From Dehalococcoidales bacterium (lineage in GTDB: Bacteria > Chloroflexota > Dehalococcoidia > Dehalococcoidales > BS750m-G39): DNA of 64,000 nt. The translations under genes and the position numbers were made by a program. Where the stretch lies: positions 4,328 through 68,327 of the forward strand of contig JALHSZ010000010.1 in the NCBI GenBank assembly GCA_022865485.1, given 5' to 3'. Below, piece after piece: positions 9,448-58,179 of the stretch (positions are counted from its first letter, which is position 1; the number at the start of each line of letters is the position of its first letter). Under the pieces are notes generated by a model that made no database searches, was not told the origin of the DNA, and was given only the letters and a program-made list of their open reading frames with translations.

Positions 9448-10665
9448 TTATTCTTCTTCCAGCTCAAAGGCACGGTGTAAGGCTCGGACGGCGTCCTCGA
9501 CCTTATCTTCGCCGATAATGCAGGTGATTCTTATCTCCGAGGTGGAAATAAGCTGGATGTTAATCCCCTTCTCGCTCAAGGTGGAAAACAGGCGGGCGGC
9601 AAAACCGGGCGTATTCTGCATGCCGGTGCCGATAATGCTGACCTTGCCCAGATGAGAGTCGCTGACGCACTCGGTGGCGCCGATTGACTTTGCAATGGGC
9701 TTGACCACCGCCATCGCCTTATCCAGCTGGCTCTTGGCCACGGTAAAGGTCAAATCGGTGATATTATTGATACTGGCGTTCTGCTCGATGGTATCGATAC
9801 TGACGTTGGCTTTAGCTAGCGGCTCGAAGATAGCCGCGGCGATACCCGGATGGTCGGGCACGCCGACCACCGTTATCTTGGCCACATCCAGGTCGTGAGC
9901 GATACCCCGCACCTTATTTCTTAGTTCCATAGACCCCCCTCCATGAATTAGTGTCCCCGGATTATCGTTAAAGCTGGAAGCCACCAGAATAGGTATATGG
10001 AAAAGCTCCCCCAGCTCGACCGCCCGGGGGTGCATTACCTTGGCGCCGTAGGTCGCCAGCTCCAGCATCTCCTCGTAGCCGATTTCGTCCACCTTCCGCG
10101 CCTCAGGAACGAGCCTGGGGTCGGCGGTATAGACCCCCTCCACATCGGTGTATATCTGGCAGGCATCCGCCGCCAGGCTGGCCGCCAGTGCCACGGCGGT
10201 GGTATCGGAGCCCCCCCGCCCCAGCGTGGTGATATCCATCCCCTCGGTAATCCCCTGGAAGCCGGCCACGATGACGATATTGCCCTTGTCCAGCTCGCTG
10301 ACCACCCTCTCCGGGTCAATCCGCTCAATCCGAGCCTGGCTATAGGCGGCGTTTGTCTTTATCCCCGCCTGCCCCCCGGTCAGGCTGATGGCTTCATAGC
10401 CCATTTCCTCCAGCGCCATCGCCAGCAGCGTGCTGGAAACGACCTCCCCCGTGGAAAGGAGAAGGTCGAGCTCGCGGTCGGCGGGGTGGCTGGTCATCTG
10501 GTAGGCTAATTTCAGCAGGTTATCGGTGCTATCCCCCATCGCCGAAACCACCACCACCACCTCGTTGCCCTTATCTTTAGTAGCAGCGATGCGCCGAGCC
10601 ACGTTCTTAATCTTCTCGGCGTCGGCAACCGAACTCCCGCCGTATTTCTGAACGATCAAAGCCAT
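9448..10665 (-). CDS. lysC: Aspartate kinase
   Basis: [20 protein letters not shown]-terminus, a kinase domain, and two C-terminal ACT-like regions. Confidence 0.9.
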
Positions 10666-12640: not shown

Positions 12641-12676
12641 CAGGGACTGGCGCAGTCTGATTTAATACGCAATCTT

Positions 12677-12706
12677 CGGGAGCGGGGCTTTAAACTCCCG
12701 CTCCCG
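12677..12706. terminator. Bidirectional stem-loop between convergent genes
   Basis: Perfect 10-bp stem CGGGAGCGGG / CCCGCTCCCG with a 10-nt loop, between the transporter (+) and the toxin (-). Confidence 0.55.
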
Positions 12707-12709
12707 GCT

Positions 12710-12973
12710 TTACCTTTTGTAGGTATCCTTGGTTCGTCTGGCTACCCGCACCACTGTAACCAGGCGTTCTTTATCGTCTATGTGATATACCACCCGGTAC
12801 TGCCTCACCCTGATGCGCCACAAGCCGCTTGAGGCTAGCTTCTTGACTCTCGGTGGTCTCGGCTCCCGCGCCAAGGCGGAGATGGCCCGGTCAACGGCCT
12901 GATAGTCCCGCCCCGCAATCGCATCCAGCTGCCTCTGGGCTATTCGCCTTAATCTAAGCTGGTAGCTCACCAC
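12710..12973 (-). CDS. RelE/ParE-family type II toxin
   Basis: YQLRLRRIAQRQLDAI...WRIRVRQYRVVYHIDDKERLVTVVRVARR. A GTG start near 12973 overlaps the antitoxin 3' end. The upstream part of the track ORF (to 13030) overlaps the antitoxin. Confidence 0.7.
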   Translation of the reverse strand: MVSYQLRLRRIAQRQLDAIAGRDYQAVDRAISALAREPRPPRVKKLASSGLWRIRVRQYRVVYHIDDKERLVTVVRVARRTKDTYKR

Positions 12974-16891: not shown

Positions 16892-17938
16892 ATGTTTGAC
16901 CACGCCGAGATAACGGTTAAGGCGGGAGACGGCGGTGATGGCATCGTCAGCTTCCGCCATGAGAAGTTTGTCCCCTTCGGCGGCCCCGACGGCGGCGACG
17001 GCGGCGACGGCGGCGATGTTATTATCCTGGCCGACCGTTCGGCGTCGAGCCTGAAGGCGTTCTGGAGAAAGCGGCAGTTCAAGGCGACTAGCGGCAGGAA
17101 GGGCATGGGCCAGAACAAGCACGGTAAGAATGGGGAAAGCCTGACCCTGACCGTGCCCGCGGGCACCGTGGTCAGCTATAAGGCGCAGGTCGGCGGCGGG
17201 AGCCTCATCGCCGACCTGGACCAGGCTGGCCAGTCGGTGGTGGTAGCTAAAGGTGGCAAGGGGGGCTGGGGCAACGCCCGCTTCGCCAGTTCGACCAACC
17301 AGGCGCCCCAGACCGCCGAGGAGGGGACGGAAGGGAAGGAGCATTCCCTGATTTTAGAGCTCAAGCTTATTGCCGATGTCGGCGTTATCGGCTATCCTAA
17401 TGTGGGCAAGTCGACGCTGCTGGCGGCGGTCTCGGCGGCTAAGCCCCGGATAGCCAGCTACCCCTTCACCACGCTGGAACCGGTGCTGGGAGTGGTCGAG
17501 GTCGGCCGGCTGAGCTTTGTCCTGGCCGAGATTCCCGGGCTGATAGAGGGCGCCCACCTGGGCAAGGGGCTGGGGCACGACTTCCTGCGCCACATTGTGC
17601 GCACCCGGGTGCTCATCCACCTGTTAGACGGCGGCTCGCCCTCGCCCGCGGAGGATATGGCGCAGGTAAACACCGAGCTCAGCCTCTTCGACTCGGCGCT
17701 GGCCCAGAAACCGCAGCTGGTGGCGGTCAACAAGCTCGACCTGCCCCAGGTCAAGGCCCGGCAGGAGGAACTCAGGGAGAGCTTCGTCTCTATCGGCACT
17801 CCTGTCTTTTTCGTCTCGGCGGTCAGCGGCGAGGGCATCCCCGAGCTTATGGCGGCGACGGAGAAAATGCTTCAGTCGGCGCCCAGGCCCGAGCCGGCAA
17901 AGAGAAAAAAGGTTTTCAGGCCTCAGCCTAAACCTTAG
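16892..17938 (+). CDS. obg: GTPase Obg/CgtA
   Basis: MFDHAEITVKAGDGGDGIVSFRHEKF..GGPDGGDGGDGGDV. G1 motif GYPNVGKST. Confidence 0.9.
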   Translation: MFDHAEITVKAGDGGDGIVSFRHEKFVPFGGPDGGDGGDGGDVIILADRSASSLKAFWRKRQFKATSGRKGMGQNKHGKNGESLTLTVPAGTVVSYKAQVGGGSLIADLDQAGQSVVVAKGGKGGWGNARFASSTNQAPQTAEEGTEGKEHSLILELKLIADVGVIGYPNVGKSTLLAAVSAAKPRIASYPFTTLEPVLGVVEVGRLSFVLAEIPGLIEGAHLGKGLGHDFLRHIVRTRVLIHLLDGGSPSPAEDMAQVNTELSLFDSALAQKPQLVAVNKLDLPQVKARQEELRESFVSIGTPVFFVSAVSGEGIPELMAATEKMLQSAPRPEPAKRKKVFRPQPKP

Positions 17939-17965
17939 TCAATCTGGGATTGGAGTAGCCGTAGA

Positions 17966-20520
<2,555 letters not shown>

Positions 20521-38727: not shown

Positions 38728-38788
38728 GGTCTTCTCTATAAGGATAGCCAAAAATGCCCCTTAATTTAAGGGGCACACTAGCCTGATA

Positions 38789-38880
38789 TGGCGGAGGGGG
38801 AGGGATTCGAACCCTCGACCCCGGTTACCCAGGGTAAGCACTTAGCAGGCGCCCGCACTAGACCACTATGCGACCCCTCC
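38789..38880 (-). tRNA. tRNA-Ser (anticodon GCU), long variable arm, CCA encoded
   Basis: The reverse complement folds as GGAGGGG..D arm..anticodon loop CTGCTAA..variable arm TACCCTGGGTAACCGGGG..T arm GAGGG-TTCGAAT-CCCTC..CCCCTCC-G-CCA. Confidence 0.85.
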
Positions 38881-40290: not shown

Positions 40291-40859
40291 GAGTACTGGG
40301 CATTAGTGGCAGCCCCCGCCGCGGCGGCAACACCGACCTCCTGCTGGCTGAAGTGATGAAGGGCGCCGAAAGCCAGGGCGCCGAGGCCAAGACCATTATC
40401 CTGAACGACCTCAAGATTACCCCCTGCCAGCACTGCGACGCCTGCTTCGAGGCGGGCGTCTGCAAGATAAAAGACGATATGCAGATGGTCTATGCCGAGA
40501 TGGAAAAAGCGGACCGAATCGTGCTGGCTTCCCCGGTGCACTTCCTGGGGCTGACCGCCCAGGCCAAGGCGATGATTGACCGCGGCCAGGCGCTCTGGGC
40601 GCGAAAATATATACTGAAAAAACCCACGCTGGGCGACAGCCGGCCCCGGAAAGGCTTATTCATCGCCGTCGGCGGTATGAAGCTGGCTCATCTCTTCGAG
40701 CCCTCGCTGGCGACGGTCAAAGCCTTCTTCAAGGTCATTGATGTCGAATACGCCGCCGACCTGCTCTTCCCCGGTGTCGACGAAAAGGGCGCCATCAAGA
40801 AGCACCCCGATGCTTTAAAGCAGGCATTTACCGCCGGCCAGAATCTGGTTACAGAGTGA
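40287..40859 (+). CDS. Flavodoxin-like NADPH-dependent FMN reductase / iron-sulfur flavoprotein family
   Basis: VLGISGSPRRGGNT, CQHCDAC cluster. Confidence 0.75.
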   Translation: MRVLGISGSPRRGGNTDLLLAEVMKGAESQGAEAKTIILNDLKITPCQHCDACFEAGVCKIKDDMQMVYAEMEKADRIVLASPVHFLGLTAQAKAMIDRGQALWARKYILKKPTLGDSRPRKGLFIAVGGMKLAHLFEPSLATVKAFFKVIDVEYAADLLFPGVDEKGAIKKHPDALKQAFTAGQNLVTE

Positions 40860-40881
40860 GGCAATCGAGAGGAGGAAAAGC

Positions 40882-41568
40882 ATGGATACCGTTACCGCCG
40901 TCAACAAGAGAAAGAGCACGCGGGCTTTTAAGCCCGACCCCGTCCCACAGCCGGTTCTAAAAGAGATAATGGAGCTGGCGTTGCGGGCGCCTTCCTGGGC
41001 GAACACGCAGCCCTGGGAATTCGCCGTAGTCGCCGGAAGCAAGCTCGAAGAGATAAAGCAAAGCTTCATCGAAAAGCTGGACGAGCCACCCGCCCTCGAT
41101 ATCGCCCGTCCCTGGGGCTTCCCCGAACCCTATGGCGGCCGTATTGGCCGGCTGATGGGCACAGAACAGAAAATCAGGGGAATAAAACGGGAAGACCGGG
41201 AGGGCAGGGGCTGGTGGCGGTTGCAGGGCTTGAAGAATTACGGCGCCCCCTGCGTTATTTTTATCTGCATCGACCGCGCCTTTTACTTTCAGGAAGAGAG
41301 CATAAATGCCTGGCTGCTCTTCGATTGCGGTCTGGTCGCCGAGAACATCATGCTTCTGGCTACCGACTACGGACTGGGCACGGTGGCTCAGGCGCAGGCG
41401 GTTCACTACCCCGATGTCCTGAGAAAGGCGCTGGGCATACCCGACTCCAAGCTCATCGTGCTCGGCATCGCCATCGGCTATCCCGATGAAGCAGACCCGA
41501 TAAACCATTTCCGCTCGGAAAGAGAACCTTTGGATAGCGTCGCCAAGTGGTATGGCTTCGGCCAGTGA
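40882..41568 (+). CDS. Nitroreductase family protein
   Basis: KRKSTRAF, APSWANTQPWEF. The last 40 codons are duplicated at 45489..45605. Confidence 0.8.
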   Translation: MDTVTAVNKRKSTRAFKPDPVPQPVLKEIMELALRAPSWANTQPWEFAVVAGSKLEEIKQSFIEKLDEPPALDIARPWGFPEPYGGRIGRLMGTEQKIRGIKREDREGRGWWRLQGLKNYGAPCVIFICIDRAFYFQEESINAWLLFDCGLVAENIMLLATDYGLGTVAQAQAVHYPDVLRKALGIPDSKLIVLGIAIGYPDEADPINHFRSEREPLDSVAKWYGFGQ

Positions 41569-41581
41569 AGGGAAGTCAGAC

Positions 41582-42343
41582 TCACGCCCACCTTCCCTTG
41601 CTTGACAGGATTATCTTTTCCTTGGTGAGGGAGCGGGAGAGGTAAAAGGCAATTATTCCCAGAAGGGCTGCCCCGGCTAAATTATACAGGGCGTAGTCCC
41701 AGGAAGTTAAAAGCCACAAAATCCGTCCTCCGACCTGCCCCACCACCTGCATCAGAACTACCCCGACAAATATAATAATGGTCTGGCCGATAACCGGGTT
41801 GGTAATCAGGCTGAAGATAATCCCCACCATAACCAGGGCCAACATGAACAGGGGCAGGAAGAGAAAGCTGGTAAATGCCGCCGCCAGCGGGAGGACAAAA
41901 TGACCCGTAGTCGGCAGGATAGCCGCCAGGTTCATCGTCAGAATGACTATCAGCGTAGCCATAAGCCCGATGATATAGGCCGGCAGGAAGATAGCCAGAC
42001 TTTTCCCTATCCAGACCCCCCTGGCGGTTAGCGGCGTCGCCAGCAGAGACTCTATAGGCCCCTTGGCCTTTTCCTTGGCGATTGGGTCGGTCGCCCAGGT
42101 CGCCATGCAGCTGAATAGGACTATGAGCGGCACGTAGTTAGCCGCCAGCCCTATGCAGAGCTCTAACAGGGGCTTCGCCTCATCCCAGGATATTCCGTCG
42201 GCTAACCACCCCTTGAGAGCGATAGGTACGCCTACCGCCGCCGCCACGATAAGAGCGCCGATGATACTAACCACAATCAGCAACGACTTGCTATGCAGGG
42301 TATCCCCTAAGTCGTTTCGCAGAACAACGAGCATTCCCTTCAT
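41582..42343 (-). CDS. ABC-2-type transporter permease
   Basis: Six hydrophobic segments. Overlaps the ATPase gene by 4 nt. Confidence 0.65.
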   Translation of the reverse strand: MKGMLVVLRNDLGDTLHSKSLLIVVSIIGALIVAAAVGVPIALKGWLADGISWDEAKPLLELCIGLAANYVPLIVLFSCMATWATDPIAKEKAKGPIESLLATPLTARGVWIGKSLAIFLPAYIIGLMATLIVILTMNLAAILPTTGHFVLPLAAAFTSFLFLPLFMLALVMVGIIFSLITNPVIGQTIIIFVGVVLMQVVGQVGGRILWLLTSWDYALYNLAGAALLGIIAFYLSRSLTKEKIILSSKGRWA

Positions 42344-43263
42344 GATGGCTCCACTTCCTTGAGTATGGCGGAGTAGATTTCCTCGAGGGAGGCTTCCTTT
42401 TTACTTACCCCCTCAATCTCTACCCCCCGCCCGACGAGAAGACTCACGATATCAGGGATTCTTACTCCTTCCTGGGGAGCGAAGGTGAGGATGTTGCCCT
42501 TCCTCTCTCGCAATCCCAGCCGGGAGAGGCTCTTGAGTTCAGCCAGGAGAGGCTCGGCGATGGCTTCGGTAGTCTCAATCTCTACCTCATTCCCACTCCT
42601 CTCACGCTGAAGCTGCTCCAGCTCGCCATAGAGCTTTATCTCACCACGGTCGATTAGAGCGATGCGGTTGCAGATTCTCTGCACCTCGTCCAGATTGTGA
42701 GAGCTCAGGAAGATGGTCCTTCCCTCCTTATGAGCCATGTTAAGGATGACCTCTCTCACCTCCATCTGGCCCGAGGGGTCAACTCCAGCCGTGGGCTCAT
42801 CCAGGACCAGAAGCTCCGGGTTATGCGTCATCGCCCGGGCCAAAGCCAGCCTTTGCCTCATCCCCTTGGAATAGGTGCCCACCTTGTCTCTGGCTCTATC
42901 CCGAAGCTCTACCAGCTCCAAAACCCTATCAATCCTCTCGGCGGGTTCGGCCATTCCGTAAATTCGGGTGTAATACCACAGGTTCTCCTCGGCGGTCTTA
43001 TTATCGTAAAGCCCGTCGCTCTCCAGGACAAAGCCCACCTTTCTTCTGGCCTCATCTCGGGAGACATCGTCTCCCAGGATAGTAGCCTTGCCCGAGGTGG
43101 GCTGGAGCAGGCCGAGAAGGATTCTAATAGTGGTGGTCTTACCGGCTCCGTTAGGCCCCAGATAACCGAAGATATCCCCCTGCTTTACCGTGAAGCTGAC
43201 ATCACTGAGGACTTCGCGTTCCCCCAGTTGCTTGGAGATAGCTTCAAGTCTTATGGCGTCCAT
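42340..43263 (-). CDS. ABC transporter ATP-binding protein (ABC-2 exporter type)
   Basis: Walker A GPNGAGKTT, signature YSKGMRQRL, Walker B LVLDEPTAGVD. Confidence 0.85.
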   Translation of the reverse strand: MDAIRLEAISKQLGEREVLSDVSFTVKQGDIFGYLGPNGAGKTTTIRILLGLLQPTSGKATILGDDVSRDEARRKVGFVLESDGLYDNKTAEENLWYYTRIYGMAEPAERIDRVLELVELRDRARDKVGTYSKGMRQRLALARAMTHNPELLVLDEPTAGVDPSGQMEVREVILNMAHKEGRTIFLSSHNLDEVQRICNRIALIDRGEIKLYGELEQLQRERSGNEVEIETTEAIAEPLLAELKSLSRLGLRERKGNILTFAPQEGVRIPDIVSLLVGRGVEIEGVSKKEASLEEIYSAILKEVEPS

Positions 43264-43364
43264 TCCCTGTCCTTATCGTTGATTTAAGTGATTCTGGGCA
43301 AGATGCTAGCCCCATTATAGCCTAGAAGCTGGAGCTAAGAAAGGGCGCTGACGGAGACGTCCTA

Positions 43365-44075
43365 TTAAGCCAGAGCCGGTAGAATATCAGGGAGCCTCTC
43401 CACCCTTCCGCCGCGTCGGATATATTGGCTAACAGCGCCAGCCAATGCCTCTACCTTACCGTCAGGGAAGACCTTGATAGCCGCCCCGGAAGGAATCCCG
43501 TAGCCTTTCACGTTATCCTGCTCAAGTGCCAGCAAAGCCTTTAATTCCTGCCAGTCATCCTCTTCGGCATGGGTATCACAGATAATCGGCGCCACCCCCA
43601 GACAGGGGAAAATCTCAGCCGTCGCATCATCGTCAGGGTCTCGCCAGCGAATCCACTCTTTGGCCAGCATAATGCTCCCGGCCGAGACCCCGAAAAACGG
43701 TTTACCCTGCCTGTAAAGCTGAAACAGGAAATCGACCATACCCTTTTCCCGCAGAACCTCCATACCCCTCTCCACATCCCCGCCGCTGATAAAAACGATA
43801 TCGGCTGAGATAAGTATATTTTGCGCCTTCTTGAGGTCGGCGTGGTGGGGGGTAATCAGGGCGTGGCTAATCCGGCCTGCCCCCGCCCCCTGCATTTCCT
43901 TCATCATAAAGCTGAGAAACCTGGTGTCATCATCACTGGCCGTGCCCACGTAGCCCACGCTGGGCGACGGCTTACCGCATTCCCGTAAAGCCGCCTGAAA
44001 GGTAGTGTCGGGCTGCCCGTGGGGGCCCCGGCGGCTCCCCCCGATTAAGTAAACAGGCTTCATATTATTCGTCAT
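43365..44075 (-). CDS. Peptidase S51 (dipeptidase E / cyanophycinase-like) family protein
   Basis: ISGGDV and the nucleophile elbow GVSAGS. ATG at 44075 with a GGGGGG SD. Overlaps the upstream ligase gene. Confidence 0.6.
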   Translation of the reverse strand: MTNNMKPVYLIGGSRRGPHGQPDTTFQAALRECGKPSPSVGYVGTASDDDTRFLSFMMKEMQGAGAGRISHALITPHHADLKKAQNILISADIVFISGGDVERGMEVLREKGMVDFLFQLYRQGKPFFGVSAGSIMLAKEWIRWRDPDDDATAEIFPCLGVAPIICDTHAEEDDWQELKALLALEQDNVKGYGIPSGAAIKVFPDGKVEALAGAVSQYIRRGGRVERLPDILPALA

Positions 44076-44091
44076 TATGTTCCCCCCTTCC

Positions 44092-45417
44092 TCAGTCGGT
44101 GACATAGTTTTCATCCAAATAATGCTCTATTTCTACCGGAAACAACGTCTTGGCCAGGCTGTATTTCCCGGAGCCTTCCGGGGGAATGGCATCTTGATAG
44201 CTAACCGAGACTTCAGCATCTCGGCCATAGAGCCCTTTCAATATTTCTGAGGCCTGTTCACTAAGCCTGTCCTTATCCCGCCGCTGGCTGACAAGGTACA
44301 AATGGTAAACACCTTCCCCAGGCTGCTCCAGGCGGTACTCATCGATTCCCTCTAAAACGCTCAGGGCTTTGTCCAGTTCACGTAAAGAGACCAGCCGGCC
44401 GCTGCAGGTGAGAGTCACATTGGTTAGCCGACCCTCAATCGCCTCAAGAATCAAACCCGAATCCCTCCCACAGGGACACTCGCCCCGTTCATCAATACGG
44501 ACTAAATCGCCGACGTCAAAACGAACGATATAATACCACGGATTATTAAAGGTAGTGACCAGAATCCTGCCCAGCCGGGGGCCGCCATGTTCTGGCTTTA
44601 AGGGGTGAAAATCCACGCGACAAAATTCGCTGTTCTGATGAAATTTCCCTTTCTCACACTGCATAAAAACATATCCCGTTTCCGTGGTTCCATACGAGCT
44701 GGCTATGGGCACATCGAAGACCCTGCGGATTTGCCGGTAATGGAAAGCCGAGGGGTATTCGTAAGTAAAAACGATAAGCTGAGGCTGAAAAACCGTTTTT
44801 TTAGTGGTGGCAATATAACGGCATAACTTCGCCAGCAGTGAAGGGTTAGCCTCCAGGACCACTGGCTTAAAAATTTCCAGCTCCCTTATCATCCTGTCCA
44901 TATACTCCGAAGTCCATGATAACGGGTCAGTTTTTTCGTTAAGATAAAGGAACCGTGCCAGGCGCCGCTTTCCCATAGGAAGCTCGACGGTATCCGAGAT
45001 AAAACCGACATTGAGCGGGTTGGCCAGAATCGCCTCCGGGTGACTCCCCGTGGCAATTTTATTGGCATAAGAATTAAGCTTCCAGGAGGCCCTCTCCGAA
45101 GCGTCCCACCACTTTTGATTCCATATATTAGTGACGCTAGAGTCAATCGTGCCGCTGGTTTTAACGAAGGCTATCTCCCCATTGGCCAAGCCGCGTTTAA
45201 AATCGCTATCATTGGGAAGAAGACCCTGGGGGAAGTGCTGGCGAACATCTTGCTTAGTAAGTGCGGGCATGGCGGCGTAGCGCTTATCGACCGGATATTC
45301 GGGGCCGAGGTCGAAAGCCCGCCAGGAACGGTAGGCAGCAACCTCACCGAGAGCTGTCTCCAAGACATACAGGGAACGGCTGTAATAATCAGCCGAGAAT
45401 TTCCAATCCCGGGGCAT
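44092..45417 (-). CDS. PaaK/CapK/F390-synthetase-like adenylate-forming enzyme
   Basis: TSGTIDSS (a degenerate P-loop-like A3 motif), YGTTETG, CPCGR. 441 aa. Confidence 0.65.
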   Translation of the reverse strand: MPRDWKFSADYYSRSLYVLETALGEVAAYRSWRAFDLGPEYPVDKRYAAMPALTKQDVRQHFPQGLLPNDSDFKRGLANGEIAFVKTSGTIDSSVTNIWNQKWWDASERASWKLNSYANKIATGSHPEAILANPLNVGFISDTVELPMGKRRLARFLYLNEKTDPLSWTSEYMDRMIRELEIFKPVVLEANPSLLAKLCRYIATTKKTVFQPQLIVFTYEYPSAFHYRQIRRVFDVPIASSYGTTETGYVFMQCEKGKFHQNSEFCRVDFHPLKPEHGGPRLGRILVTTFNNPWYYIVRFDVGDLVRIDERGECPCGRDSGLILEAIEGRLTNVTLTCSGRLVSLRELDKALSVLEGIDEYRLEQPGEGVYHLYLVSQRRDKDRLSEQASEILKGLYGRDAEVSVSYQDAIPPEGSGKYSLAKTLFPVEIEHYLDENYVTD

Positions 45418-45488
45418 CAACTATGCTCCTTTATGATGTGCGTAATCGAGCCAAACTCAATTCTATCACTACCCTTCGCTGGGAAGCA

Positions 45489-45605
45489 AAGCTCATCGTG
45501 CTCGGCATCGCCATCGGCTATCCCGACGAAGATGACCCGATAAACAGTTTCCGCTCGGAAAGGGAGCCGCTGGATAGTGTCGCCAGATGGTGTGGCTTCG
45601 ACTAA
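45489..45605 (+). pseudogene. Orphan 3' fragment of a nitroreductase gene (about 39 codons, no 5' part)
   Basis: Encodes KLIVLGIAIGYPDEDDPINSFRSEREPLDSVARWCGFD*. The intact gene ends KLIVLGIAIGYPDEADPINHFRSEREPLDSVAKWYGFGQ*. The first 38 nt are identical and the whole is about 89% identical by hand alignment. Confidence 0.8.
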
Positions 45606-46777
45606 TCTAAAGGCAGGTCGTAGATGCGCCAGGTCTTGTAGCGCTTGGCCCCCATAAACTCGGAAGGGCGCAGGATGAGGTGGTTATCCTCCAGGAGCAG
45701 GGACGCCTCGCACGTGGAGTAGCCTTTCCCGATGGCGTAGTTCTTAACCCTTTCGTAGAGCAGGGCGTCGATGCCCAGGTTGCGAAAACCGGGACGAATG
45801 CCGAAGAACATCAGGCGGGTGCGGCCGGTGTGCCGACGCTTACGGAGCAGCCGGATAAGGCGTATCAGGTCGGAATCGCCGTACCAGCGCCAGCGTGGCC
45901 GTAAGGCATAATTGGGGTCGGGGAAAGCCCCCAGAACAGCCGCCGGCTCACCTCGGACGAAGGCGAACTGAACCAAGCCCGGATCTACGATCAGGCGCAG
46001 GGAATTTGCCAAGAGGATAGCTTCCTCATCGGTTATGGGCAGGAACCCCCAGTTTTGCGCCCAGCTATCGTTATATATTTTTACTATCAGGTGCACCTCT
46101 TTTTGCAGGTGTTTGAGGATTAGTGGCCGCGTTTCGATGTCCCGGCGCTGTCGTACCTGCTCGGCCAGCCTCTGCAATCGGGGGGGTGGGGGCGTTTGCA
46201 CGTCCATGATATAGGCGTGATAGTCCTTGGCTTTGCCGAAACCGTAGCGTTCCAGGAAGTCGGCGTAGTAGGGAGGGTTGTGGGTCAGTTCCACCGTCGG
46301 CGGATACTCGAAGCCGTCGATAAGGATACCCTGGCGTTCGTGGGTGGCATTGGAGTATTCACCGGGGCCTCTTATAACCGTCATCCCGCGCTCTTTGACC
46401 CAGGCACAAGCCCGCTCCAACAGTGCCTTAGCCACGGCATAATCCTCGATGACGTCCCAGAAGCCGAAAAAGCCGATACGAGTACCGTGGTATTCGTTGA
46501 AGCGACGGTTGATGGCCGCCGAGACTCGTCCCACCGCCTTGCCGTCACGCCAGGCCAGAAAGTGGGTAACTTCAGCATCCCGGTGGTAGGGGTGCTTCGG
46601 CGTCAGCAGGCCGACCAGGCCGAGCCATCGGTTGCCGAGCAGGTCGCCGCGGAGGGGCGGGGTCCAGCAGGGGTCGCCGCGATGGATATGCCAGGGTAAA
46701 TCGGCGAAGAGCTTAATTCGGGGCGAGCCTAACGAGATTTCCTCGATCCTCAGGGGGGCGCGGGATGTGGAATTCAT
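45602..46777 (-). CDS. Uncharacterised GNAT-fold-like (acyl-CoA N-acyltransferase-like) protein
   Basis: RIGFFGFWDVIEDYAVAKALLERACAWVKERGMTVIRGP resembles a large uncharacterised 'N-acetyltransferase' family. The assignment is tentative. Confidence 0.4.
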   Translation of the reverse strand: MNSTSRAPLRIEEISLGSPRIKLFADLPWHIHRGDPCWTPPLRGDLLGNRWLGLVGLLTPKHPYHRDAEVTHFLAWRDGKAVGRVSAAINRRFNEYHGTRIGFFGFWDVIEDYAVAKALLERACAWVKERGMTVIRGPGEYSNATHERQGILIDGFEYPPTVELTHNPPYYADFLERYGFGKAKDYHAYIMDVQTPPPPRLQRLAEQVRQRRDIETRPLILKHLQKEVHLIVKIYNDSWAQNWGFLPITDEEAILLANSLRLIVDPGLVQFAFVRGEPAAVLGAFPDPNYALRPRWRWYGDSDLIRLIRLLRKRRHTGRTRLMFFGIRPGFRNLGIDALLYERVKNYAIGKGYSTCEASLLLEDNHLILRPSEFMGAKRYKTWRIYDLPLD

Positions 46778-46781
46778 AAAG

Positions 46782-47951
46782 CTATTTAGCCACTACCAGC
46801 TTGCCCACCGCCGTCTCCAGCCCGGCCAGCGTTAGCGGGTACATGGAGAAGAGCTTCCCAATCATCTGCACGGTGGGGTGAATCCAGAAGCGCGGGTCGT
46901 CGGGGTTCAACCAGACGCAGTGGCTGAAGTGCTCCCTGATTCTTTTCAGCCAGAGTATGCCCGGTATCTCGTTGCGCTCGTAGTAATTTATGGCTCCGTA
47001 GCGCTCGGTCAGCTCCCAGGGCCCCATCCTGGCGTCGCCCACCAGCAGCAGCTTGTAGTCGGGCTCCAGCGTGTGCAGCAGGTGCAGGGTGCTCACCGCG
47101 TCCACCCGCTCGACGTCTTTGTAGAGGTAGTCGTAGATGCAGTTGTGGAAATAATAATACTGAAAGTCCCGGAAATGGGTGCTGGAATGCGCCGCCGAGA
47201 AGAGCTGGCTGCAGAGCTTGGCGAAGGGCTCCATGGAGCCGCCGACGTCCATCAGCAAGAGCAACTTTACCGTGTTCTTGCGGCTGCGCTGCCAGATAAA
47301 ATCGAGGTCGCCGGCATTTTTAGCGGTGGCTTTAATCGTCCCCTCAAGGTCTAATTCATCTTCAACACCGGTGCGGCGCAGCTGCCTCAGCTTTTTGAGT
47401 GCCATGCCTATCTGGCGCACGTCCAGCGTCAGGTCGCTGCGGTAGTTCTTGAATCTACGCTCCGCGGCAATCTGTACGGCGTGCCGGCCCCCCGACTGCC
47501 CCCCGATTCTGATGCCCGCGGGGTGGTAGCCCGAGTGCCCGAAGGGAGAGGTGCCCCCCCTCCCTATCCAGTGGCCGCCCCCGTCGTGCTGCTCGGTCTG
47601 CTCTTTGAGCCGTTTTTCCAGCTCTTTAATCAGCTCGTCGAAGTCCATGCTCTCGAACTTGGCCTGCTCCTCCTCGCTTAAGAAAAGGCGGTTCAGGGGG
47701 TCTTTGAGCCAGTCCAGCACCTGCTCGGCAATCTCCTCGGGGGCTTCCACCCCCTGGAAGTACTGCTGGAAGGCGACGTCGTACTGGTCGTAGTAGGCTT
47801 CGCTCTTGACCAGGATGGCTCGGGCCAGGAAATAGAAATCGTCCAGGTTATGGATGTGCCCCTTGGCCAGGGCTTCCATGAGGGTCATCCACTCCACGAG
47901 CGAGACCGGCACCTTGTTTTTCCTGAGGATATAGAAAAAATCGGTAAACAT
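46782..47951 (-). CDS. VWA domain protein, CoxE-like
   Basis: N-terminus FFYILRKNKVPVSLVEWMTLMEAL. VWA MIDAS-like LLLMDVGGSM. Sits directly downstream of a MoxR-type ATPase. Confidence 0.65.
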   Translation of the reverse strand: MFTDFFYILRKNKVPVSLVEWMTLMEALAKGHIHNLDDFYFLARAILVKSEAYYDQYDVAFQQYFQGVEAPEEIAEQVLDWLKDPLNRLFLSEEEQAKFESMDFDELIKELEKRLKEQTEQHDGGGHWIGRGGTSPFGHSGYHPAGIRIGGQSGGRHAVQIAAERRFKNYRSDLTLDVRQIGMALKKLRQLRRTGVEDELDLEGTIKATAKNAGDLDFIWQRSRKNTVKLLLLMDVGGSMEPFAKLCSQLFSAAHSSTHFRDFQYYYFHNCIYDYLYKDVERVDAVSTLHLLHTLEPDYKLLLVGDARMGPWELTERYGAINYYERNEIPGILWLKRIREHFSHCVWLNPDDPRFWIHPTVQMIGKLFSMYPLTLAGLETAVGKLVVAK

Positions 47952-51283: not shown

Positions 51284-51323
51284 CCCCCCCCGCCCCGATA
51301 AGCTCTCCGATATCTTCTATCCC
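51281..51323 (-). pseudogene. About 40-bp orphan copy of the pyrD 3' terminus
   Basis: TAGCCCCCCCCGCCCCGATAAGCTCTCCGATATCTTCTATCCC, against the pyrD end (53197-53240) TAGCCCCGCCCCGCCCCGATAAGCTCGGCGATATCCTCGACCCC. Confidence 0.6.
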
Positions 51324-52942
51324 TTTTCAGACTCATCAAGCATGTGTTGCTTACGGAGCGGGATTTCTCTGAGGAACAGGTTGGTGATGAAGGCAAGAAC
51401 AGTCATAACAAAGGCTACCACAAAAACCTCGGTAAGGCCGGAATTAAGAGCTTCACGCAGTGTCTGGAGTGTCTGGTCACAAAGAGCGGCCCCTTGCTCT
51501 CCCATATTACGGAACACGGCTTGCAACTGAGCTTGCGCTTCTGGACTCACCAGCACCTGAGCATTGTGTGTTATTGAAGATAACAGCTCGGGTGGTATAA
51601 GCGCCTTTATTGTTTCAGGGAGTTTGGTAAGGAACTCCGAGGCCAGGCGGTTGGTCATTATCGAGCCGAAGATTGACAACCCGACAGTGCCGCCGATGGC
51701 ACGGAAAAAAGGCACCGAAGAAGTAGCGGCACCAAGGACGTTGTAGGGGACTGTATTCTGAACAGCGATAGTGTAAAGTGGCATGGTGATACCCAGTCCA
51801 AAGCCGATAAGGGCAATGTTTACCACGGCACTGGCGTAGCTTGTTTCGGGGGTCACCCTGGAGAGAAGCGCCAGACCCAAAGCCATGATGGCTAGGCCAA
51901 AGATACCCTGAAGGCGGTAATGTCCGCCGGTGCGGGCTAGTAGCTGCCCGGAAATAAAACTGGCGATTACCTGGCTGAGCATCATGGGCATCAAAAAACT
52001 GCCGCTGGTAGTAGCCGATAGTCCCAGGACCCCCTGAAAGAAAAGGGGAATAAAAATGATACTGCCGAACATGCCAATACCGGAGAGAAAGGTAATCGAA
52101 ATAGATATAGCTACAATCGGATTTTTGAAGATGCGGAGGGGTATAATAGGTTCCTCGCTTTTACCTTCGATTATCGGGAAAGCTACGATAGCTGCCGCTG
52201 ATAGGGCAAACATGCCGATGACCGGGACCGATAGCCAGGGGTATTCCGTCCCACCCCAGGACAGGGCCAGCATCAGCGGCACTACGGCCAGTACCAGTGC
52301 GGTAATACCAGCGTAGTCAATCTTATGCTCTAAATTGTCCTGCCGGAAGTGAGGGAAAAAGACGATGAATAGAATGATAGTAATAATGCCCAGAGGGATG
52401 TTTATATAAAATATCCAGTGCCAGGAAAAGCTATCGGTTATGAATCCACCCAGAGTTGGGCCAATCACCGATGATACGCCAAAGACGGCGGTTACCAGAC
52501 CAATATATTTCCCACGTTCGGCGGGCGGAAAAAGGTCGCCAATAACGGTGAAGGCATTGGCCATTATGATGCCGCCGCCAACACCCTGAAGGCCGCGAAA
52601 GATAATAATCTGGGTCATAGTCTGGCTTAGCCCGCACAGTAAAGAGCCGAGGATGAAAATCGCGATCCCGGCAGTATAAAAGTATTTGCGACCGTACATA
52701 TCGGTTAGCTTGCCAGTAATCGGCAGCACGATGGTTGAAGTCACCATATAGGCTGTCGCCAGCCAGGTATAGTGGGCAAATCCACCAAGGTCAGCAATAA
52801 TGCGCGGCGTAGCCGTACCGACAATGGTCTGGTCCAGCGAACTCAAGAACATGGTCAGGAGTACTCCGCCTAGAGTAATGATTATTTGTCGCCTTGGTAA
52901 TGAACGCAGGCCGATTGGTGGTAGCTGGACCTCTTTCCCCAC
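51317..52942 (-). CDS. MFS drug:H+ antiporter, DHA2 (14-TM, EmrB/QacA-like) family
   Basis: 541 aa, LDQTIVGTATP, 14 hydrophobic segments. Noticeably lower GC than its neighbours. Confidence 0.8.
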   Translation of the reverse strand: MGKEVQLPPIGLRSLPRRQIIITLGGVLLTMFLSSLDQTIVGTATPRIIADLGGFAHYTWLATAYMVTSTIVLPITGKLTDMYGRKYFYTAGIAIFILGSLLCGLSQTMTQIIIFRGLQGVGGGIIMANAFTVIGDLFPPAERGKYIGLVTAVFGVSSVIGPTLGGFITDSFSWHWIFYINIPLGIITIILFIVFFPHFRQDNLEHKIDYAGITALVLAVVPLMLALSWGGTEYPWLSVPVIGMFALSAAAIVAFPIIEGKSEEPIIPLRIFKNPIVAISISITFLSGIGMFGSIIFIPLFFQGVLGLSATTSGSFLMPMMLSQVIASFISGQLLARTGGHYRLQGIFGLAIMALGLALLSRVTPETSYASAVVNIALIGFGLGITMPLYTIAVQNTVPYNVLGAATSSVPFFRAIGGTVGLSIFGSIMTNRLASEFLTKLPETIKALIPPELLSSITHNAQVLVSPEAQAQLQAVFRNMGEQGAALCDQTLQTLREALNSGLTEVFVVAFVMTVLAFITNLFLREIPLRKQHMLDESEKG

Positions 52943-55137: not shown

Positions 55138-55569
55138 CTAGGTGGCTCTCTGGCAGTCCTGGCAGCGCCCGATGAACTCGAGCAGGTGTCCTTCAATCTC
55201 AAAGCCGGTCTCCCGGCAAAGCCTTGCCTCCAGCTCGGTGAGGTAATGGCCGCTGAAGTCGATAACCTCGCCGCAGTCGGCGCAGATAAGGTGGTGGTGG
55301 TGCCCCGGGGCGGCGATGGTGTAGCTGCGGCAGCTCCCCCCCGCGTGCAGCTCGCAGATAAGCTCTAATCTGGCCAGGATGTCCAGGGTGCGGTAGACGG
55401 TCACCAGCCCTATAGCAGGGTGGTCCTGCCGCACCTTTTGGTAGAGGGCGGTGGTGGTAAGGTGGTCGGGGCTGGAGGCGATGGCGCCTATTACCGCCCG
55501 GCGCTGCGGGGTGAGCTTATAGCCGTGGCGCTTCAGGGAGGCGGTTATCTTCTTTTCGCTAAGTCTCAT
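55138..55569 (-). CDS. zur: Fur-family regulator, probably Zur
   Basis: LTPQRRAVIGAI, HHHHLICADCG, CQDC. ATG at 55569. The track ORF's N-terminal extension runs into the promoter and repeat region. Confidence 0.75.
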   Translation of the reverse strand: MRLSEKKITASLKRHGYKLTPQRRAVIGAIASSPDHLTTTALYQKVRQDHPAIGLVTVYRTLDILARLELICELHAGGSCRSYTIAAPGHHHHLICADCGEVIDFSGHYLTELEARLCRETGFEIEGHLLEFIGRCQDCQRAT

Positions 55570-55575
55570 CTCAAG

Positions 55576-55629
55576 CTCTAAATGAAAATTATTATCATTT
55601 ATATAATACAATATTATCATGGTTGTCAA
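55576..55629 (-). promoter_or_regulatory. zur-zupT promoter with overlapping Fur/Zur-box-like sites
   Basis: The minus strand reads TTGACA-ACCATGATAATATTGTA-TTATAT...AAATGATAATAATTTTCATTT. It has two TGATAAT half-sites and an imperfect palindrome at 55580-55600. Confidence 0.55.
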
Positions 55630-55630
55630 G

Positions 55631-55847
55631 ACCCCGCCCCCGGGTTTTTCTTCCCACCCAAATCCCACCCTACAGAGGTGTCACCTCTATATACTTCTCT
55701 CCTTACCCCTTAGACTACACAGTCATTGCTTCCCTCCGTCATTCCCGCGAAGGCGGGAATCCAGTCTCCCCCTTTGGTAAAGGGGGATTAAGGGGGATTT
55801 TCCCTATCCACTGTCATTGCGAGGAGCTTGAGCGACGAAGCAATCTC
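55631..55847 (+). repeat. Intergenic mosaic repeat cluster 2 (modules A 55631-55702, B 55738-55801, C 55811-55847)
   Basis: Module B is GTCATTCCCGCGAAGGCGGGAATCCAGTCTCCCCCTTTGGTAAAGGGGGATT (two hairpins). Module C is CTGTCATTGCGAGGAGCTTGAGCGACGAAGCAATCTC. All three recur at 57851-58157. Confidence 0.8.
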
Positions 55848-56948: not shown

Positions 56949-57842
56949 ATGGACAAGTCATATAGCCTTACCGCTGATGGGGACGCCCGTCTCGACAAAT
57001 ATGTCTGCGCCCGAGCCCCCGAACTTTCCCGGACACGGGTGCAAAAGCTCATTGCCGCGGGCAATATCACCGTCAACGGGCAGCCGGCTAAGCCGGGGCA
57101 CAGGCTCAGTCCCGGTGACAGGATTGAGCTTAATGTTCCCCCCACCCCGCCCCAGGAGCTGAAGCCCGAGGCGATTCCGCTGGAAATCCTCTACGAAGAC
57201 GACGACCTCCTGGTCGTCGATAAGCCGGCCGGTCTGACCGTCCACCCCGCCCCGGGCCACCCCGCCCATACCCTGGTCAACGCCATCCTGGCTCACTTTC
57301 CCCACCTGGCTGACATCGGCGACTCCCTGCGCCCCGGTGTCGTCCATCGGCTGGATAAAGACACCTCGGGGGTGATGCTGGTGGCGAAGAACAGCGCCGC
57401 CCAGGTTGACCTCGCTAAGCAGTTCAAGTCCCACTCCGTAACCAAGGCTTATCTGGCGCTGGTCAAGGGCAGGCTGGAGCCCGAAAACGGTATCATCGAG
57501 GCCGATATCGGCCGCGACCCCCGCAACCGGAAGCGCATGGCGGTGGTGGCTGAGGGCAGGGAGGCCCGCACCGAATACCGCGTGGTCAGATATATCGGCG
57601 GCTACAGCCTGCTTGAGATTATGCCCGAAACCGGGCGCACCCACCAGATAAGGGTGCACCTGGCGGCAATCGGCTTTCCCGTGGTGGGGGATAAGGTCTA
57701 CGGCGTCAAGTCCAAATATCTTTCTCGCCAGTTCCTCCACGCCTCCCGTTTGGGCTTTAAGCTCCCCTCCACCGGGGAGTACGTTGAGTTCCAGTCCGCG
57801 CTGCCCCCCGACCTGGAGCAAGCGCTGGAGGATATTGGCTAG
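56949..57842 (+). CDS. rluD: RluA/RluD-family 23S rRNA pseudouridine synthase
   Basis: S4 domain N-terminus, HRLDKDTSGVM catalytic motif, GRTHQIRVH. Confidence 0.9.
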   Translation: MDKSYSLTADGDARLDKYVCARAPELSRTRVQKLIAAGNITVNGQPAKPGHRLSPGDRIELNVPPTPPQELKPEAIPLEILYEDDDLLVVDKPAGLTVHPAPGHPAHTLVNAILAHFPHLADIGDSLRPGVVHRLDKDTSGVMLVAKNSAAQVDLAKQFKSHSVTKAYLALVKGRLEPENGIIEADIGRDPRNRKRMAVVAEGREARTEYRVVRYIGGYSLLEIMPETGRTHQIRVHLAAIGFPVVGDKVYGVKSKYLSRQFLHASRLGFKLPSTGEYVEFQSALPPDLEQALEDIG

Positions 57843-57850
57843 ACTACTTG

Positions 57851-58179
57851 CCCCACCCCCGCGTCTTTCGTCCCACCCAATACCCACCCTACAGAGGTGT
57901 CACCTCTATAGACTTCTCTCTCCCCCCCCTTGCTATCATGGCAAGAAGCCCTTTTTCTTTTTGTCATTGCGAGGAACGCAGCGACGAAGCAATCTCTCCG
58001 CCATCTTGAGCGAACGCACCCTCACTTTGTCATTCCCGCGAAGGCGGGAATCCAGTCTCTCCCTTTAGTAAAGGGAGATAGAGAGGGATTTCGTAACCCC
58101 CCCCATAGCCTTTCTTTCCCCCTGTCATTGCGAGGAACGCAGCGACGAAGCAATCTCAGGGTGAGGGTGATAAAAACCC
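57851..58179 (+). repeat. Intergenic mosaic repeat cluster 3 (A 57851-57923, C 57961-57996, B 58029-58092, C 58122-58157, partial E 58165-58179)
   Basis: Same orientation as cluster 2. Module C is present twice with identical sequence TGTCATTGCGAGGAACGCAGCGACGAAGCAATCTC. Confidence 0.8.

Follow-up and report, generated by a model that had tools for sequence, protein, structure and literature searches.

The window analyzed here, a 64-kb stretch of DNA from an uncultured Dehalococcoidales genome, contains a locus at which two conserved gene blocks converge. One strand carries miaB-patatin-ybeY-FMN reductase-nitroreductase, and the opposite strand carries AAA-VWA(-GNAT). Nitroreductase (NTR) orthologues are 76 to 90% identical and share the same FMNred-NTR synteny. 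The interval from the nitroreductase gene to the VWA gene is a variable slot that is filled differently across relatives. In the window lineage, it holds a GNAT-like gene, a ligase/S51-peptidase pair with its own putative promoter, and an ABC exporter pair, arranged as follows.

40882..41568, plus strand: intact nitroreductase, 228 aa, ending in GFGQ and the stop (Pfam PF00881, E 2.8e-31)
41449..41560, plus strand: repeat copy 1, covering the final 37 codons of the full-length nitroreductase
41449..41486, plus strand: 38-nt core, shared without mismatch by the two window copies
41561..41584, no strand assigned: junction between the stop codons of nitroreductase and ABC permease, aligning without gaps and colinearly with the native L170 junction
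41582..42343, minus strand: ABC-2-type permease, 253 aa (weak PF12679 match)
42340..43263, minus strand: DrrA-like ABC ATPase, 307 aa (PF00005, E 7e-34)
43365..44114, minus strand: peptidase S51-like protein, 249 aa, containing GVSAGS (PF03575, E 1.3e-18)
44092..45420, minus strand: PaaK-like adenylate-forming ligase, 442 aa, 51.0% GC (weak NCBIfam matches)
45421..45488, minus strand: upstream region of the ligase module with a promoter-like element, read directly from the sequence
45489..45605, plus strand: orphan nitroreductase 3' end, 38 codons and a stop, joined to the tail-to-tail junction of the ancestral arrangement
45602..46777, minus strand: GNAT-like gene, 391 aa (PF00583, E 2e-8), which ancestrally neighboured the nitroreductase in convergent orientation
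46782..47951, minus strand: VWA (CoxE-like) gene, forming the conserved right-hand edge of the variable slot

Comparison of the window with itself returned the nitroreductase-end repeat as the strongest off-diagonal match (BLAST E = 2e-34). The two copies, at 41449-41560 and 45489-45600, agree without gaps at 99 of 112 nt (88.4%), the first 38 nt being identical; over the 120-nt span chosen in an earlier sequence-only reading of this DNA, 102 of 120 nt match. That reading had located the repeat, quoted the peptide encoded by the orphan copy, and observed that the orphan lacks any upstream part of the gene and that its stop overlaps that of the GNAT-like gene, all of which we reproduced. The orphan stop occupies 45603-45605, and the opposite-strand GNAT-like stop starts at 45602. 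Between the orphan and the opposite-strand ligase start lie 68 nt, a spacer that coincides with the ligase promoter region. The joint of spacer and orphan, 45488/45489, falls at the edge of that promoter and displays at most 3 nt of microhomology.

The four genes between the copies encode transport and metabolic functions. The ABC permease gene is 88.7% identical in nucleotide sequence to that of the related locus L161, and its partner ATPase matches the TIGR01188 drrA subfamily (E 2e-72, a match below that model's cutoff). The S51-like protein has peptidase E and cyanophycinase as its PDB relatives (E 3e-7 to 1e-5), and its gene comes after the ligase gene in nearly all of ~80 loci. Weak NCBIfam matches place the ligase near F390-synthetase-related and PaaK-like families, its PDB match is phenylacetate-CoA ligase (E 3e-11), and its homologues (n = 1751) come mainly from Dehalococcoidia/Chloroflexota metagenomes. 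The ligase and S51-peptidase genes form a widespread pair with its own putative promoter. The promoter-like element comprises a -10 TAGAAT (45460-45465) with a TG extension, a -35 TTGCTT (45484-45489), and a ribosome-binding site, GGAG (45426-45429); a consensus promoter scan made no call at this element in 45421..45488. The element is conserved 5' of the ligase gene in the unrelated contexts L084, L087, and L090, and the whole of 45421..45488 is 100% identical in L161, L081, and L162. In L095, the pair sits within a tandem tRNA-Arg island array, with tRNA 3' halves flanking it, so the pair does ride integrase-type islands elsewhere.

The insert, 41569-45488, has a GC content of 53.8% versus 58.6% for the whole window; no other 3.9-kb stretch is lower (0.3rd percentile) or deviates further in tetranucleotide composition. 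The low GC had first been proposed from spot counts, and these values make it firmer than the counts suggested; by composition, the insert is foreign. The earlier description of a scar left by an insertion stands in part: the scar is borne out, while a single 3.9-kb element is not. Identity to L161 is 97 to 100% for the ligase-S51 pair and ~91% for the ABC pair, the ABC pair is absent in L081 and L082, and L170 has it without the rest of the insert. Because of this unequal identity, and because the ABC pair is absent or found alone in relatives, the 3.9 kb does not behave as one element; the "cassette" is, to judge from these comparisons, a composite in which the two pairs differ in history. 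Identity along the NTR and ABC genes is mosaic, with a further breakpoint near 41087 inside NTR, which points to repeated homologous exchange. Nor is the left boundary a fresh insertion joint; it is colinear with the native NTR/ABC-permease junction of L170, where the ABC pair lies between VWA and NTR, natively against the nitroreductase. Alignment with L170 indicates that the extra Gln codon of the nitroreductase end arose by TAG-to-CAG read-through.

The two nitroreductase ends are different alleles of the last 39 codons, one completing the intact gene and the other stranded. In its distal 72 nt, the attached copy matches the L161 attached copy at 97% identity but the window's orphan at only 82%. 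Over these 72 nt, orphan and attached copy differ at a pS of 0.45 and a pN of 0.11, which argues that they are two live, selected alleles rather than a duplicate decayed in place. Against the functional ends of L002, L163, and L006, the orphan yields a pS of ~0.8 and a pN of ~0.1 (P ~1e-5), and every orphan residue is found among full-length homologues; the orphan thus bears what we read as a purifying-selection signature. Being near-synonymous to the nitroreductase end, it has no evident use.

In the window and in L161, attached and orphan copies share the 38-nt core without a difference, as does the L081 orphan; the L082 attached copy departs from it at a single position, the core's second base. 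Among orphan copies of different genomes, core identity reaches ~42 nt. Divergence then steps up within the orphan: the first 42 nt are low, like the cassette, and the last 71 nt are high, like the host (0 to 4% variability on the cassette side versus 25% on the host side), with the boundary at the core end in every comparison (three genomes). An outgroup comparison of the nitroreductase-end copies gave no polarity between resident and incoming.

Relatives display the same site empty, occupied, and refilled. In the related Dehalococcoidales loci L001 and L002, NTR and the GNAT-like gene stand tail to tail with nothing between them, and the core is 88 to 92% identical. This synteny check upholds the proposal that the orphan-GNAT junction is ancestral, the orphan marking where the two genes once abutted. 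Slot fillings fall into at least seven distinct types: GNAT only (L001/L002); a 214-aa gene and GNAT (L163); DUF1353 and GNAT (L166); MauJ-like, DUF1353, and GNAT (L006); the ABC pair only (L170); flavodoxin-ligase-S51 on the VWA side (L172, on a contig that stops short of any nitroreductase); and the window type, GNAT with ligase-S51 and the ABC pair. The gene order is AAA-VWA-ABC pair against NTR, with GNAT absent, in L170/L171, and AAA-VWA-flavodoxin-ligase-S51 in L172. Among the related loci compared, none was a donor carrying the exact order NTR-ABC-S51-ligase and, beyond it, a different right flank.

The orphan is common to three independent assemblies, L161, L081, and L162, and L082 keeps a short remnant only; the occupied-site structure also turns up in contigs that stem from separate samples (JGI, Logan, and metagenome). 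A second orphan accompanies it, in that the VWA 3' end (46776-46854) recurs as a fragment in L161, L162, L081, and L082. The module of L161, L081, and L082 has on its flanks truncated 3' ends of the two genes that bound the slot, NTR and VWA. In L161, the joint of the VWA fragment coincides with a 9- to 11-nt microhomology, GGGGA(A)G(A)GCC. About 12 nt with a weak likeness to the GNAT start (8/12 nt) come after the VWA fragment. L161 also has interleaved repeats, in the order VWA end, NTR orphan, VWA orphan, NTR end, and three tandem copies of GGCTTCGACTAG, between two of which lies a second insert (DUF4238, 47% GC). Two further loci show other outcomes: L006 has an insert at the same junction without a repeat, and L013 has a 123-nt, 100% identical duplication of a GNAT-like 3' end, seemingly recent, on either side of an MFS gene.

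At this locus, accessory genes have been inserted between two back-to-back genes, stranding a second nitroreductase end, its last 39 codons. We propose, with about even confidence, that this came about by homology-anchored recombination with a relative's DNA, with a crossover in the identical 38- to 42-nt core and an illegitimate far joint. The incoming DNA would have derived from a related genome with different slot content beside its own nitroreductase end. One crossover would have occurred within nitroreductase homology, the core being the crossover zone; at its other end, which is the upstream edge of the ligase promoter, the incoming DNA would have been joined illegitimately to nitroreductase codon 189. 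Such homology-facilitated illegitimate recombination would require no element-encoded integrase; a single crossover of a circularised fragment with a nitroreductase 3' piece would be a topologically equivalent route. Later homologous exchanges and deletions would have reshuffled the slot, examples being the presence or absence of the ABC pair and of the 231-aa gene with the VWA fragment, and the gain of the DUF4238 gene in L161.

This proposal is favored by the empty sites, whose junction the orphan end matches, and by the donor-type arrangements of L170/L171 and L172 together with the L170-like left junction. The two alleles, the divergence step at the core end, and the mosaic identity argue in the same direction. 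The scant microhomology at the spacer/orphan joint suits an illegitimate far end, and the truncated VWA and NTR ends, the VWA microhomology joint, and the variability of the slot fit as well, as does the presence of the orphan in independent assemblies. The earlier reading had offered exchange with a donor bearing its own nitroreductase end as an alternative, and with the copies being two selected alleles, it is the version that fits best. Several points weigh against it. The crossover boundary is constant in three genome comparisons, which a site-specific process explains more simply than would homologous tracts that end at random; the tandem GGCTTCGACTAG copies resemble att-site accretion; the ligase-S51 pair occupies a tRNA-Arg island in L095; no exact-order donor was found among the related loci; and outgroups did not tell the resident copy from the incoming one. 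Homology-facilitated illegitimate recombination is also rare in experiments (PMC5361080).

A possible but less probable course is site-specific integration, in which the insert would be, or descend from, an integrase-less integrative island with an attachment site that imitates the nitroreductase 3' end, placed there by a tyrosine or serine recombinase encoded elsewhere and acting in trans. The target gene's 3' end recurs as a direct repeat whose core is perfectly identical, and this, the constant cassette/host boundary, the DUF4238 insert between tandem GGCTTCGACTAG copies, and the L095 array all suit such an event. Both integrase-less islands with long imperfect repeats (PMC3191183) and an element integrated in a gene's 3' end, e14 in icd leaving the icdC fragment (PMC13626634), are documented. 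Nevertheless, the four insert genes contain no integrase or transposase domain, and none was found in the window ORFs scanned from ~24.7 to 60 kb (at least 14 kb on each side) or, as any recombinase, in ~10 related loci, including L161, L081, L082, and L162. This absence, which the earlier reading had already remarked on, favors homology-anchored recombination and lends no support to that reading's element with a replacement terminus, were it to act through an integrase of its own. Neither the core nor the spacer was found in viral contigs. Moreover, the left junction is a native chromosomal one rather than an element end, VWA orphan fragments and a microhomology joint lie in the same slot, the insert content varies by genome with mosaic identity, and the L006 insert lacks the repeat.

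In-place duplication is unlikely. Here, a long Campbell-type or replication-template-switch event around the ligase-S51 module would have duplicated a stretch that begins at nitroreductase codon 189, takes in GNAT, and runs to the last 25 to 79 nt of VWA, one GNAT copy being later replaced by the 231-aa gene. The interleaved repeat order of L161, the GNAT-start-like nucleotides after the VWA fragment, and the L013 duplication are compatible with it. However, that GNAT-start resemblance is slight, the window's nitroreductase copies are distinct selected alleles rather than copies of one template, two GNAT copies around the module were seen in no genome compared, and an extra replacement step is needed. 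A decayed tandem nitroreductase paralogue or an assembly mis-join of strain variants is very improbable: although nitroreductases form multi-copy families and MAG assemblies can be chimeric, this reading is largely refuted by the short orphan-to-ligase spacer, a promoter region conserved in other contexts, by the lack of further nitroreductase similarity (and of any paralogue 5' remnant) upstream of the orphan, by recurrence in independent contigs, and by copies that are 88% rather than 100% identical.

Replacement-type flexible genomic islands carry different gene sets between conserved flanks and are exchanged through flanking homology, and a clean double-crossover replacement leaves no scar. 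The slot resembles such islands in having different gene contents at the same position in relatives but differs in bearing truncated copies of its flanking genes, the product of at least two imprecise events.

Insertion into a gene's 3' end is exemplified by e14 and phage 21 in E. coli icd, where the full reading frame is kept, a different 3' end is stranded as icdC, and the two copies can recombine to give back one chimeric gene (PMC13626634). As in e14/icd, a complete gene here has one version of its 3' end and a second is stranded across the insert, a 112- to 117-nt repeat (88%) lies on both sides, and the uninterrupted site is found in relatives (L001 and L002). Unlike e14, a prophage with its own integrase, the present locus yielded neither a recombinase nor a phage gene; its 3.9-kb insert of metabolic and transport genes ends on the left at the native junction of a related genome type and varies as a mosaic rather than as a single unit delimited by element-specific ends.

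Rhs, CDI, and T6SS effector loci offer a second parallel. Orphaned 3' ends there, in arrays of displaced C termini, are attributed to homology-facilitated illegitimate recombination (PMC5361080). In common with the proposal made here, a conserved part serves as anchor, a new 3' end arrives with cargo, and the old end is displaced downstream, with one joint homologous (here the 38- to 42-nt core) and the other illegitimate (at most 3 nt). Those loci diversify toxin tips, with immunity genes kept under selection, whereas here the displaced tip comes from a housekeeping-type nitroreductase, of which it is a near-synonymous allele, and the cargo is unrelated to the target.

Finally, the microcin H47 island shares extensive imperfect direct repeats and the lack of its own recombinase, and it recombines in identity segments within its repeats (PMC3191183). 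More generally, integrase-less islands mobilised in trans (H47/CIME type) have att-like direct repeats and no recombinase in the island, as here. Mobility of the H47 island has been shown experimentally and is RecA independent; the repeat of the present insert, unlike that of H47, is the coding end of a gene. The structure in this Dehalococcoidales lineage is real, and it is a fairly ordinary gene-exchange scar, of a known kind, at a variable spot in the genome.

The 3' end of an intact nitroreductase gene recurs downstream in the window as a stranded second copy (the orphan), as a sequence-only reading had claimed: positions 41449-41560 and 45489-45600 align without gaps at 99 of 112 nt, and the two copies are identical over the start of the repeat (38/38 nt). 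When the window was compared with itself, this repeat was the top off-diagonal match of the whole stretch (BLAST E = 2e-34).

Features of the duplicated locus
40882-41568: intact nitroreductase, 228 aa, PF00881, with the upstream copy at its end
between the copies, minus strand: ABC-2 permease
between the copies, minus strand: DrrA-like ABC ATPase
between the copies, minus strand: S51 peptidase-like protein, with the sequence GVSAGS
between the copies, minus strand: PaaK-like adenylate-forming ligase

The orphan has no gene body; the ligase starts on the opposite strand just 68 nt away, and the orphan's stop overlaps that of a minus-strand GNAT-like gene (391 aa). The DNA between the copies is indeed low in GC (53.8%, versus 58.6% for the window), the lowest value among all 3.9-kb stretches, and it is also the largest tetranucleotide outlier among them. 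GVSAGS presumably resembles the nucleophile motif of S51 peptidases. PADLOC assigned neither the cargo nor the other genes found in this slot (the interval from nitroreductase to a conserved VWA gene) to a defense system, returning only generic ABC-ATPase similarities, and exact-sequence look-ups of the window nitroreductase and GNAT-like proteins found no match.

A search with the GNAT-like gene yielded 80 loci; their genomes are species representatives, and almost all are MAGs of Dehalococcoidales or Dehalococcoidia. The closest two, L001 and L002, share the window's order VWA-GNAT-nitroreductase-FMN reductase-ybeY-patatin-miaB and are empty sites, in which nitroreductase and GNAT stand tail to tail with nothing between them. 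Their nitroreductase genes also end in '...GGCTTCGAC TAG', as the orphan does. The joint between orphan and GNAT is therefore the ancestral one, in agreement with what the sequence-only reading had supposed.

A search with the ligase gene recovered the occupied state in the independent assemblies L161 (a 551-kb JGI contig with flanks ~95.5% identical to the window), L162, L081, and L082, and this recurrence excludes an assembly artifact. The spacer between orphan and ligase start (45421-45488) and the start of the orphan are common to L161, L081, and L162. In L082, all that is left of the nitroreductase end is ~17 nt beside GNAT. This short orphan was first read as an internal deletion, but its promoter variant resembles that of L083, another ligase-S51 locus, and a separate exchange event is equally possible.

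The content of the slot varies among relatives.

Slot content in the window and related loci
L001, L002: GNAT only
L163: 214-aa gene and GNAT
L166: DUF1353 and GNAT
L006: MauJ-like, DUF1353, and GNAT
L170: ABC pair only
L172: flavodoxin-ligase-S51 after VWA; the contig ends before any nitroreductase
window type: ABC pair, S51, ligase, orphan, and GNAT

The ABC pair has a history separate from that of ligase and S51. It is absent from L081 and L082, and in L170 and L171, which lack GNAT, a row of AAA, VWA, ABC ATPase, and ABC permease converges straight on nitroreductase. The nitroreductase/permease junctions of the window and L170 align ungapped, and the window's 'GFGQ*' nitroreductase end reflects a TAG-to-CAG change with read-through to the next stop. 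This colinearity favors a native-type junction over a secondary deletion that removed a 231-aa gene and a VWA fragment, although a short VWA-like remnant may be present there. The S51 gene follows the ligase in essentially all of ~80 metagenome loci, and the two form a widespread module. Upstream of the ligase lies an element (TTGCTT, 18 nt, TAGAAT with a TG extension) that we read as promoter-like because it is conserved across contexts, being kept in the unrelated settings of L084, L087, and L090; a sigma-70 consensus scan did not call it. In the window, the upstream limit of the -35 box coincides precisely with the joint to the nitroreductase fragment.

Further scars mark the occupied relatives. 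L161, L081, and L082 carry a 231-246-aa gene after nitroreductase and, between this gene and the ligase-S51 module, a stranded VWA 3' end. In L161 this fragment spans 79 nt and matches the VWA end of that genome at 97.5%; a GGGGA(A)G(A)GCC microhomology marks its inner joint. In L081 it is ~25 nt long. L161 also has a 1-kb insert (47% GC) with a DUF4238 gene between orphan and GNAT. The insert is flanked by the 12-nt repeat GGCTTCGACTAG, the last 12 nt of nitroreductase, which therefore occurs three times in L161. Truncated ends of both slot-bounding genes are what imprecise, flank-anchored exchanges are expected to leave.

A small presence/absence difference also exists on the other flank of nitroreductase: between it and FMN reductase, a 106-109-aa gene is present in L161 (15410-15739), L163 (9643-9963), and L166 (9645-9965), being DUF5658 in the latter two, and is absent from the window (40859-40882), L002, and L170. 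In L161 (7595-8771), a frameshift around codon 195 splits the GNAT-like gene into two called genes (214 and 191 aa); either pseudogene formation or an error in sequencing may be the cause. In L014, another Dehalococcoidales genome, a 75-nt direct repeat (92%; 9732-9806 and 11199-11273) around the GNAT-like gene suggests that this gene, too, can be an inserted unit. L008 has two identical 404-aa GNAT-like genes 3359 nt apart (1462-2676 and 4821-6035), and the DNA that separates them holds a different gene of the nitroreductase family; the pair is a tandem duplication or else a repeat due to assembly.

Divergence is stepped along the cassette.

Identity to the window by segment
ABC genes: L161, 81-97% in 100-nt windows (gene-wide 88.7% and 94.7%, mean ~91%); L081, absent
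43170-45530 (S51, ligase, spacer, and core, the first 38-42 nt of the repeat): L161, 97-100%; L081, ligase 97.5%, S51 97.1%, spacer and core 100%
flanks/GNAT: L161, ~95.5%; L081, 89.7%

Variable columns were counted in a three-genome alignment. They make up 3-4% of the ligase and S51 genes (4-7% at third codon positions), 0/68 in the spacer, 1/42 in the first part of the orphan, 25% of its last 71 nt, and 11% of GNAT (21% at third positions). The ligase-proximal block has thus been exchanged among these lineages since their split, and in every comparison the right-hand limit of the block is the end of the core. Special constraint on spacer and core was considered and set aside: 1 of 110 columns varies against ~4 expected at the low ligase-S51 divergence, and no extra constraint is needed.

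The two copies in the window behave as alleles of a functional gene rather than as a gene and its decayed duplicate. Over the 72 nt distal to the core they differ at 45% of synonymous and 11% of nonsynonymous sites, as much as orthologues of genomes 12-18% apart. Between the orphan and functional nitroreductase ends (L002, L163, and L006), pS is ~0.8 and pN ~0.1 (binomial P ~1e-5), and every residue of the orphan peptide is found in full-length homologues; the orphan therefore belonged to a working gene during most of its divergence. Other genomes do show some decay: the L081 orphan contains an in-frame TAG, and over 51 nt the L161 orphan has exactly the sequence of the attached copy in the window, a sign of probable gene conversion. 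Variable sites compared with outgroups L001, L002, L006, L163, L166, and L170 gave a mixed signal as to which copy is resident and which incoming.

Neither the insert, the ORFs scanned at ~24.7-60 kb of the window, nor the related loci contain integrase, recombinase, or transposase domains, and viral contigs gave no match to the core or to the spacer. We hold with roughly even confidence that DNA from a related genome with different slot content recombined here. One crossover would have occurred within nitroreductase homology, the identical core offering a natural crossover zone between sequences ~10% diverged, and the far end of the incoming DNA would have been joined illegitimately at the promoter edge. 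Such a process would be homology-facilitated illegitimate recombination, to which the entry of a circularized fragment by a single crossover is equivalent; the mechanism has been put forward for Rhs and T6SS loci with orphaned 3' ends (PMC5361080).

The main rival, site-specific integration by a recombinase acting in trans, is a possibility we regard as rather doubtful. In its favor are the unvarying boundary at the core, the presence in L161 of three GGCTTCGACTAG copies in tandem, and a ligase-S51 pair inside the second, integrase-less tRNA-Arg island of L095. Precedents are published: e14 in icd leaves an icdC fragment (PMC13626634), and the H47 island is integrase-less with long imperfect repeats (PMC3191183). 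The window structure behaves like both the icd/icdC scar and C-terminal displacement. The sequence-only reading had proposed an element integrated into the gene's 3' end or, as an alternative, homologous replacement from a donor with a nitroreductase paralogue; the scar layout stands, but a self-sufficient element does not, given the lack of an integrase, the several units involved, and the native left junction.

A third reading, which we think improbable, is that a long local duplication arose around the module, with subsequent replacement of one GNAT copy. This agrees with the interleaved repeat order in L161 and a perfect 123-nt duplication in L013, but is a poorer fit to the allelic difference between the window's copies. 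In L013 that duplication (1182-1304 and 3140-3262) is of the 3' end of a GNAT-like gene and lies on both sides of a 1.8-kb insert that encodes an MFS transporter on the opposite strand; the layout is the window's, built from other parts and with zero divergence.

We consider it improbable that a recurrent process independent of any element-encoded integrase inserts accessory modules in this clade, duplicating 80-125 nt of a conserved neighbor gene. Candidate routes are circular intermediates recombining via short gene-end homologies, or a host or trans-acting recombinase using GGCTTCGACTAG as its site. The orphan VWA ends of L161 and L081 are a hint, as are the threefold GGCTTCGACTAG of L161, the repeats in L013 and those bracketing the ligase-S51 pair in L142 (an acyl-CoA-synthetase-like end) and L083 (an FAD-oxidoreductase 5' end). 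We keep the estimate low because the frequency of repeats in L013, L083, L142, and L161 is not clearly above a background of ~25 repeat pairs per 1.74 Mb. A further proposal, that the ligase-S51 pair acts as a mobile element in its own right and makes long target duplications, was rejected: bracketing repeats occur in 3-4 of ~45 contexts, which against this background, counted in the same loci, does not establish enrichment.

The ligase-S51 module moves between chromosomal contexts: this slot, a tRNA-Arg island, and a site beside transposase genes. In L095, two tandem copies of the 3' half of tRNA-Arg(acg), with a shared island-side arm, come after the intact tRNA gene (repeats at 6263-6346, 10113-10196, and 12669-12745); the second island holds the pair along with genes for a GNAT and a GYD-domain protein, and the DNA between the repeats contains no integrase. 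In L173 (3389-6829), a third kind of mobile context, the pair (ligase 85% identical) comes immediately after two transposase genes of the rve family and is followed by an MFS gene. In L093, one of the bracketing cases, the repeats are of a generic intergenic palindromic kind.

Elsewhere in the window, two neighboring pairs of direct repeats, at 55632-55701 and 57851-57920 (70 nt, 90%) and at 55731-55847 and 58022-58157 (~110-130 nt, 74-87%), lie upstream of minus-strand FUR (55138-55668) and a minus-strand 309-aa gene (56958-57887) and bracket dksA-like and lspA genes; a weak third copy is at 2452-2521. Carrying palindromic motifs such as GTCATTCCCGCGAAGGCGGGAATCC, they look like a dispersed intergenic repeat family. 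A second low-GC stretch (~49-52%) holds an MFS/TRI12-like transporter gene (51317-52942), which is also in L161 and is thus an older accessory gene. L161, the window's closest relative, has a 1.8-kb restriction-modification pair (17860-19650; N6_N4 methyltransferase and DpnII-like; 36.6% GC) inserted beside tRNA-Ser(gct) (17768-17859); the equivalent window site (38752-38880) has no such pair.

The window structure shows the testable features of flank-anchored illegitimate recombination in a variable slot, and it belongs to an already known class of recombination scars. As it stands, it is a tidy scar, well documented by comparative data and of no great surprise to a specialist. It provides a well-resolved case, documented by sites in the empty, occupied, and intermediate states, of the entry and reshuffling of small accessory modules in uncultured Dehalococcoidia, whose compact genomes have overlapping convergent genes and no intergenic DNA to spare. 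The stranded gene ends are markers from which the order of events can be told. The finding also draws attention to a ligase-S51 module with its own promoter-like element. Were a dedicated, recurrent mechanism at work, it would bear on gene flow in a group with few recognizable mobile elements.
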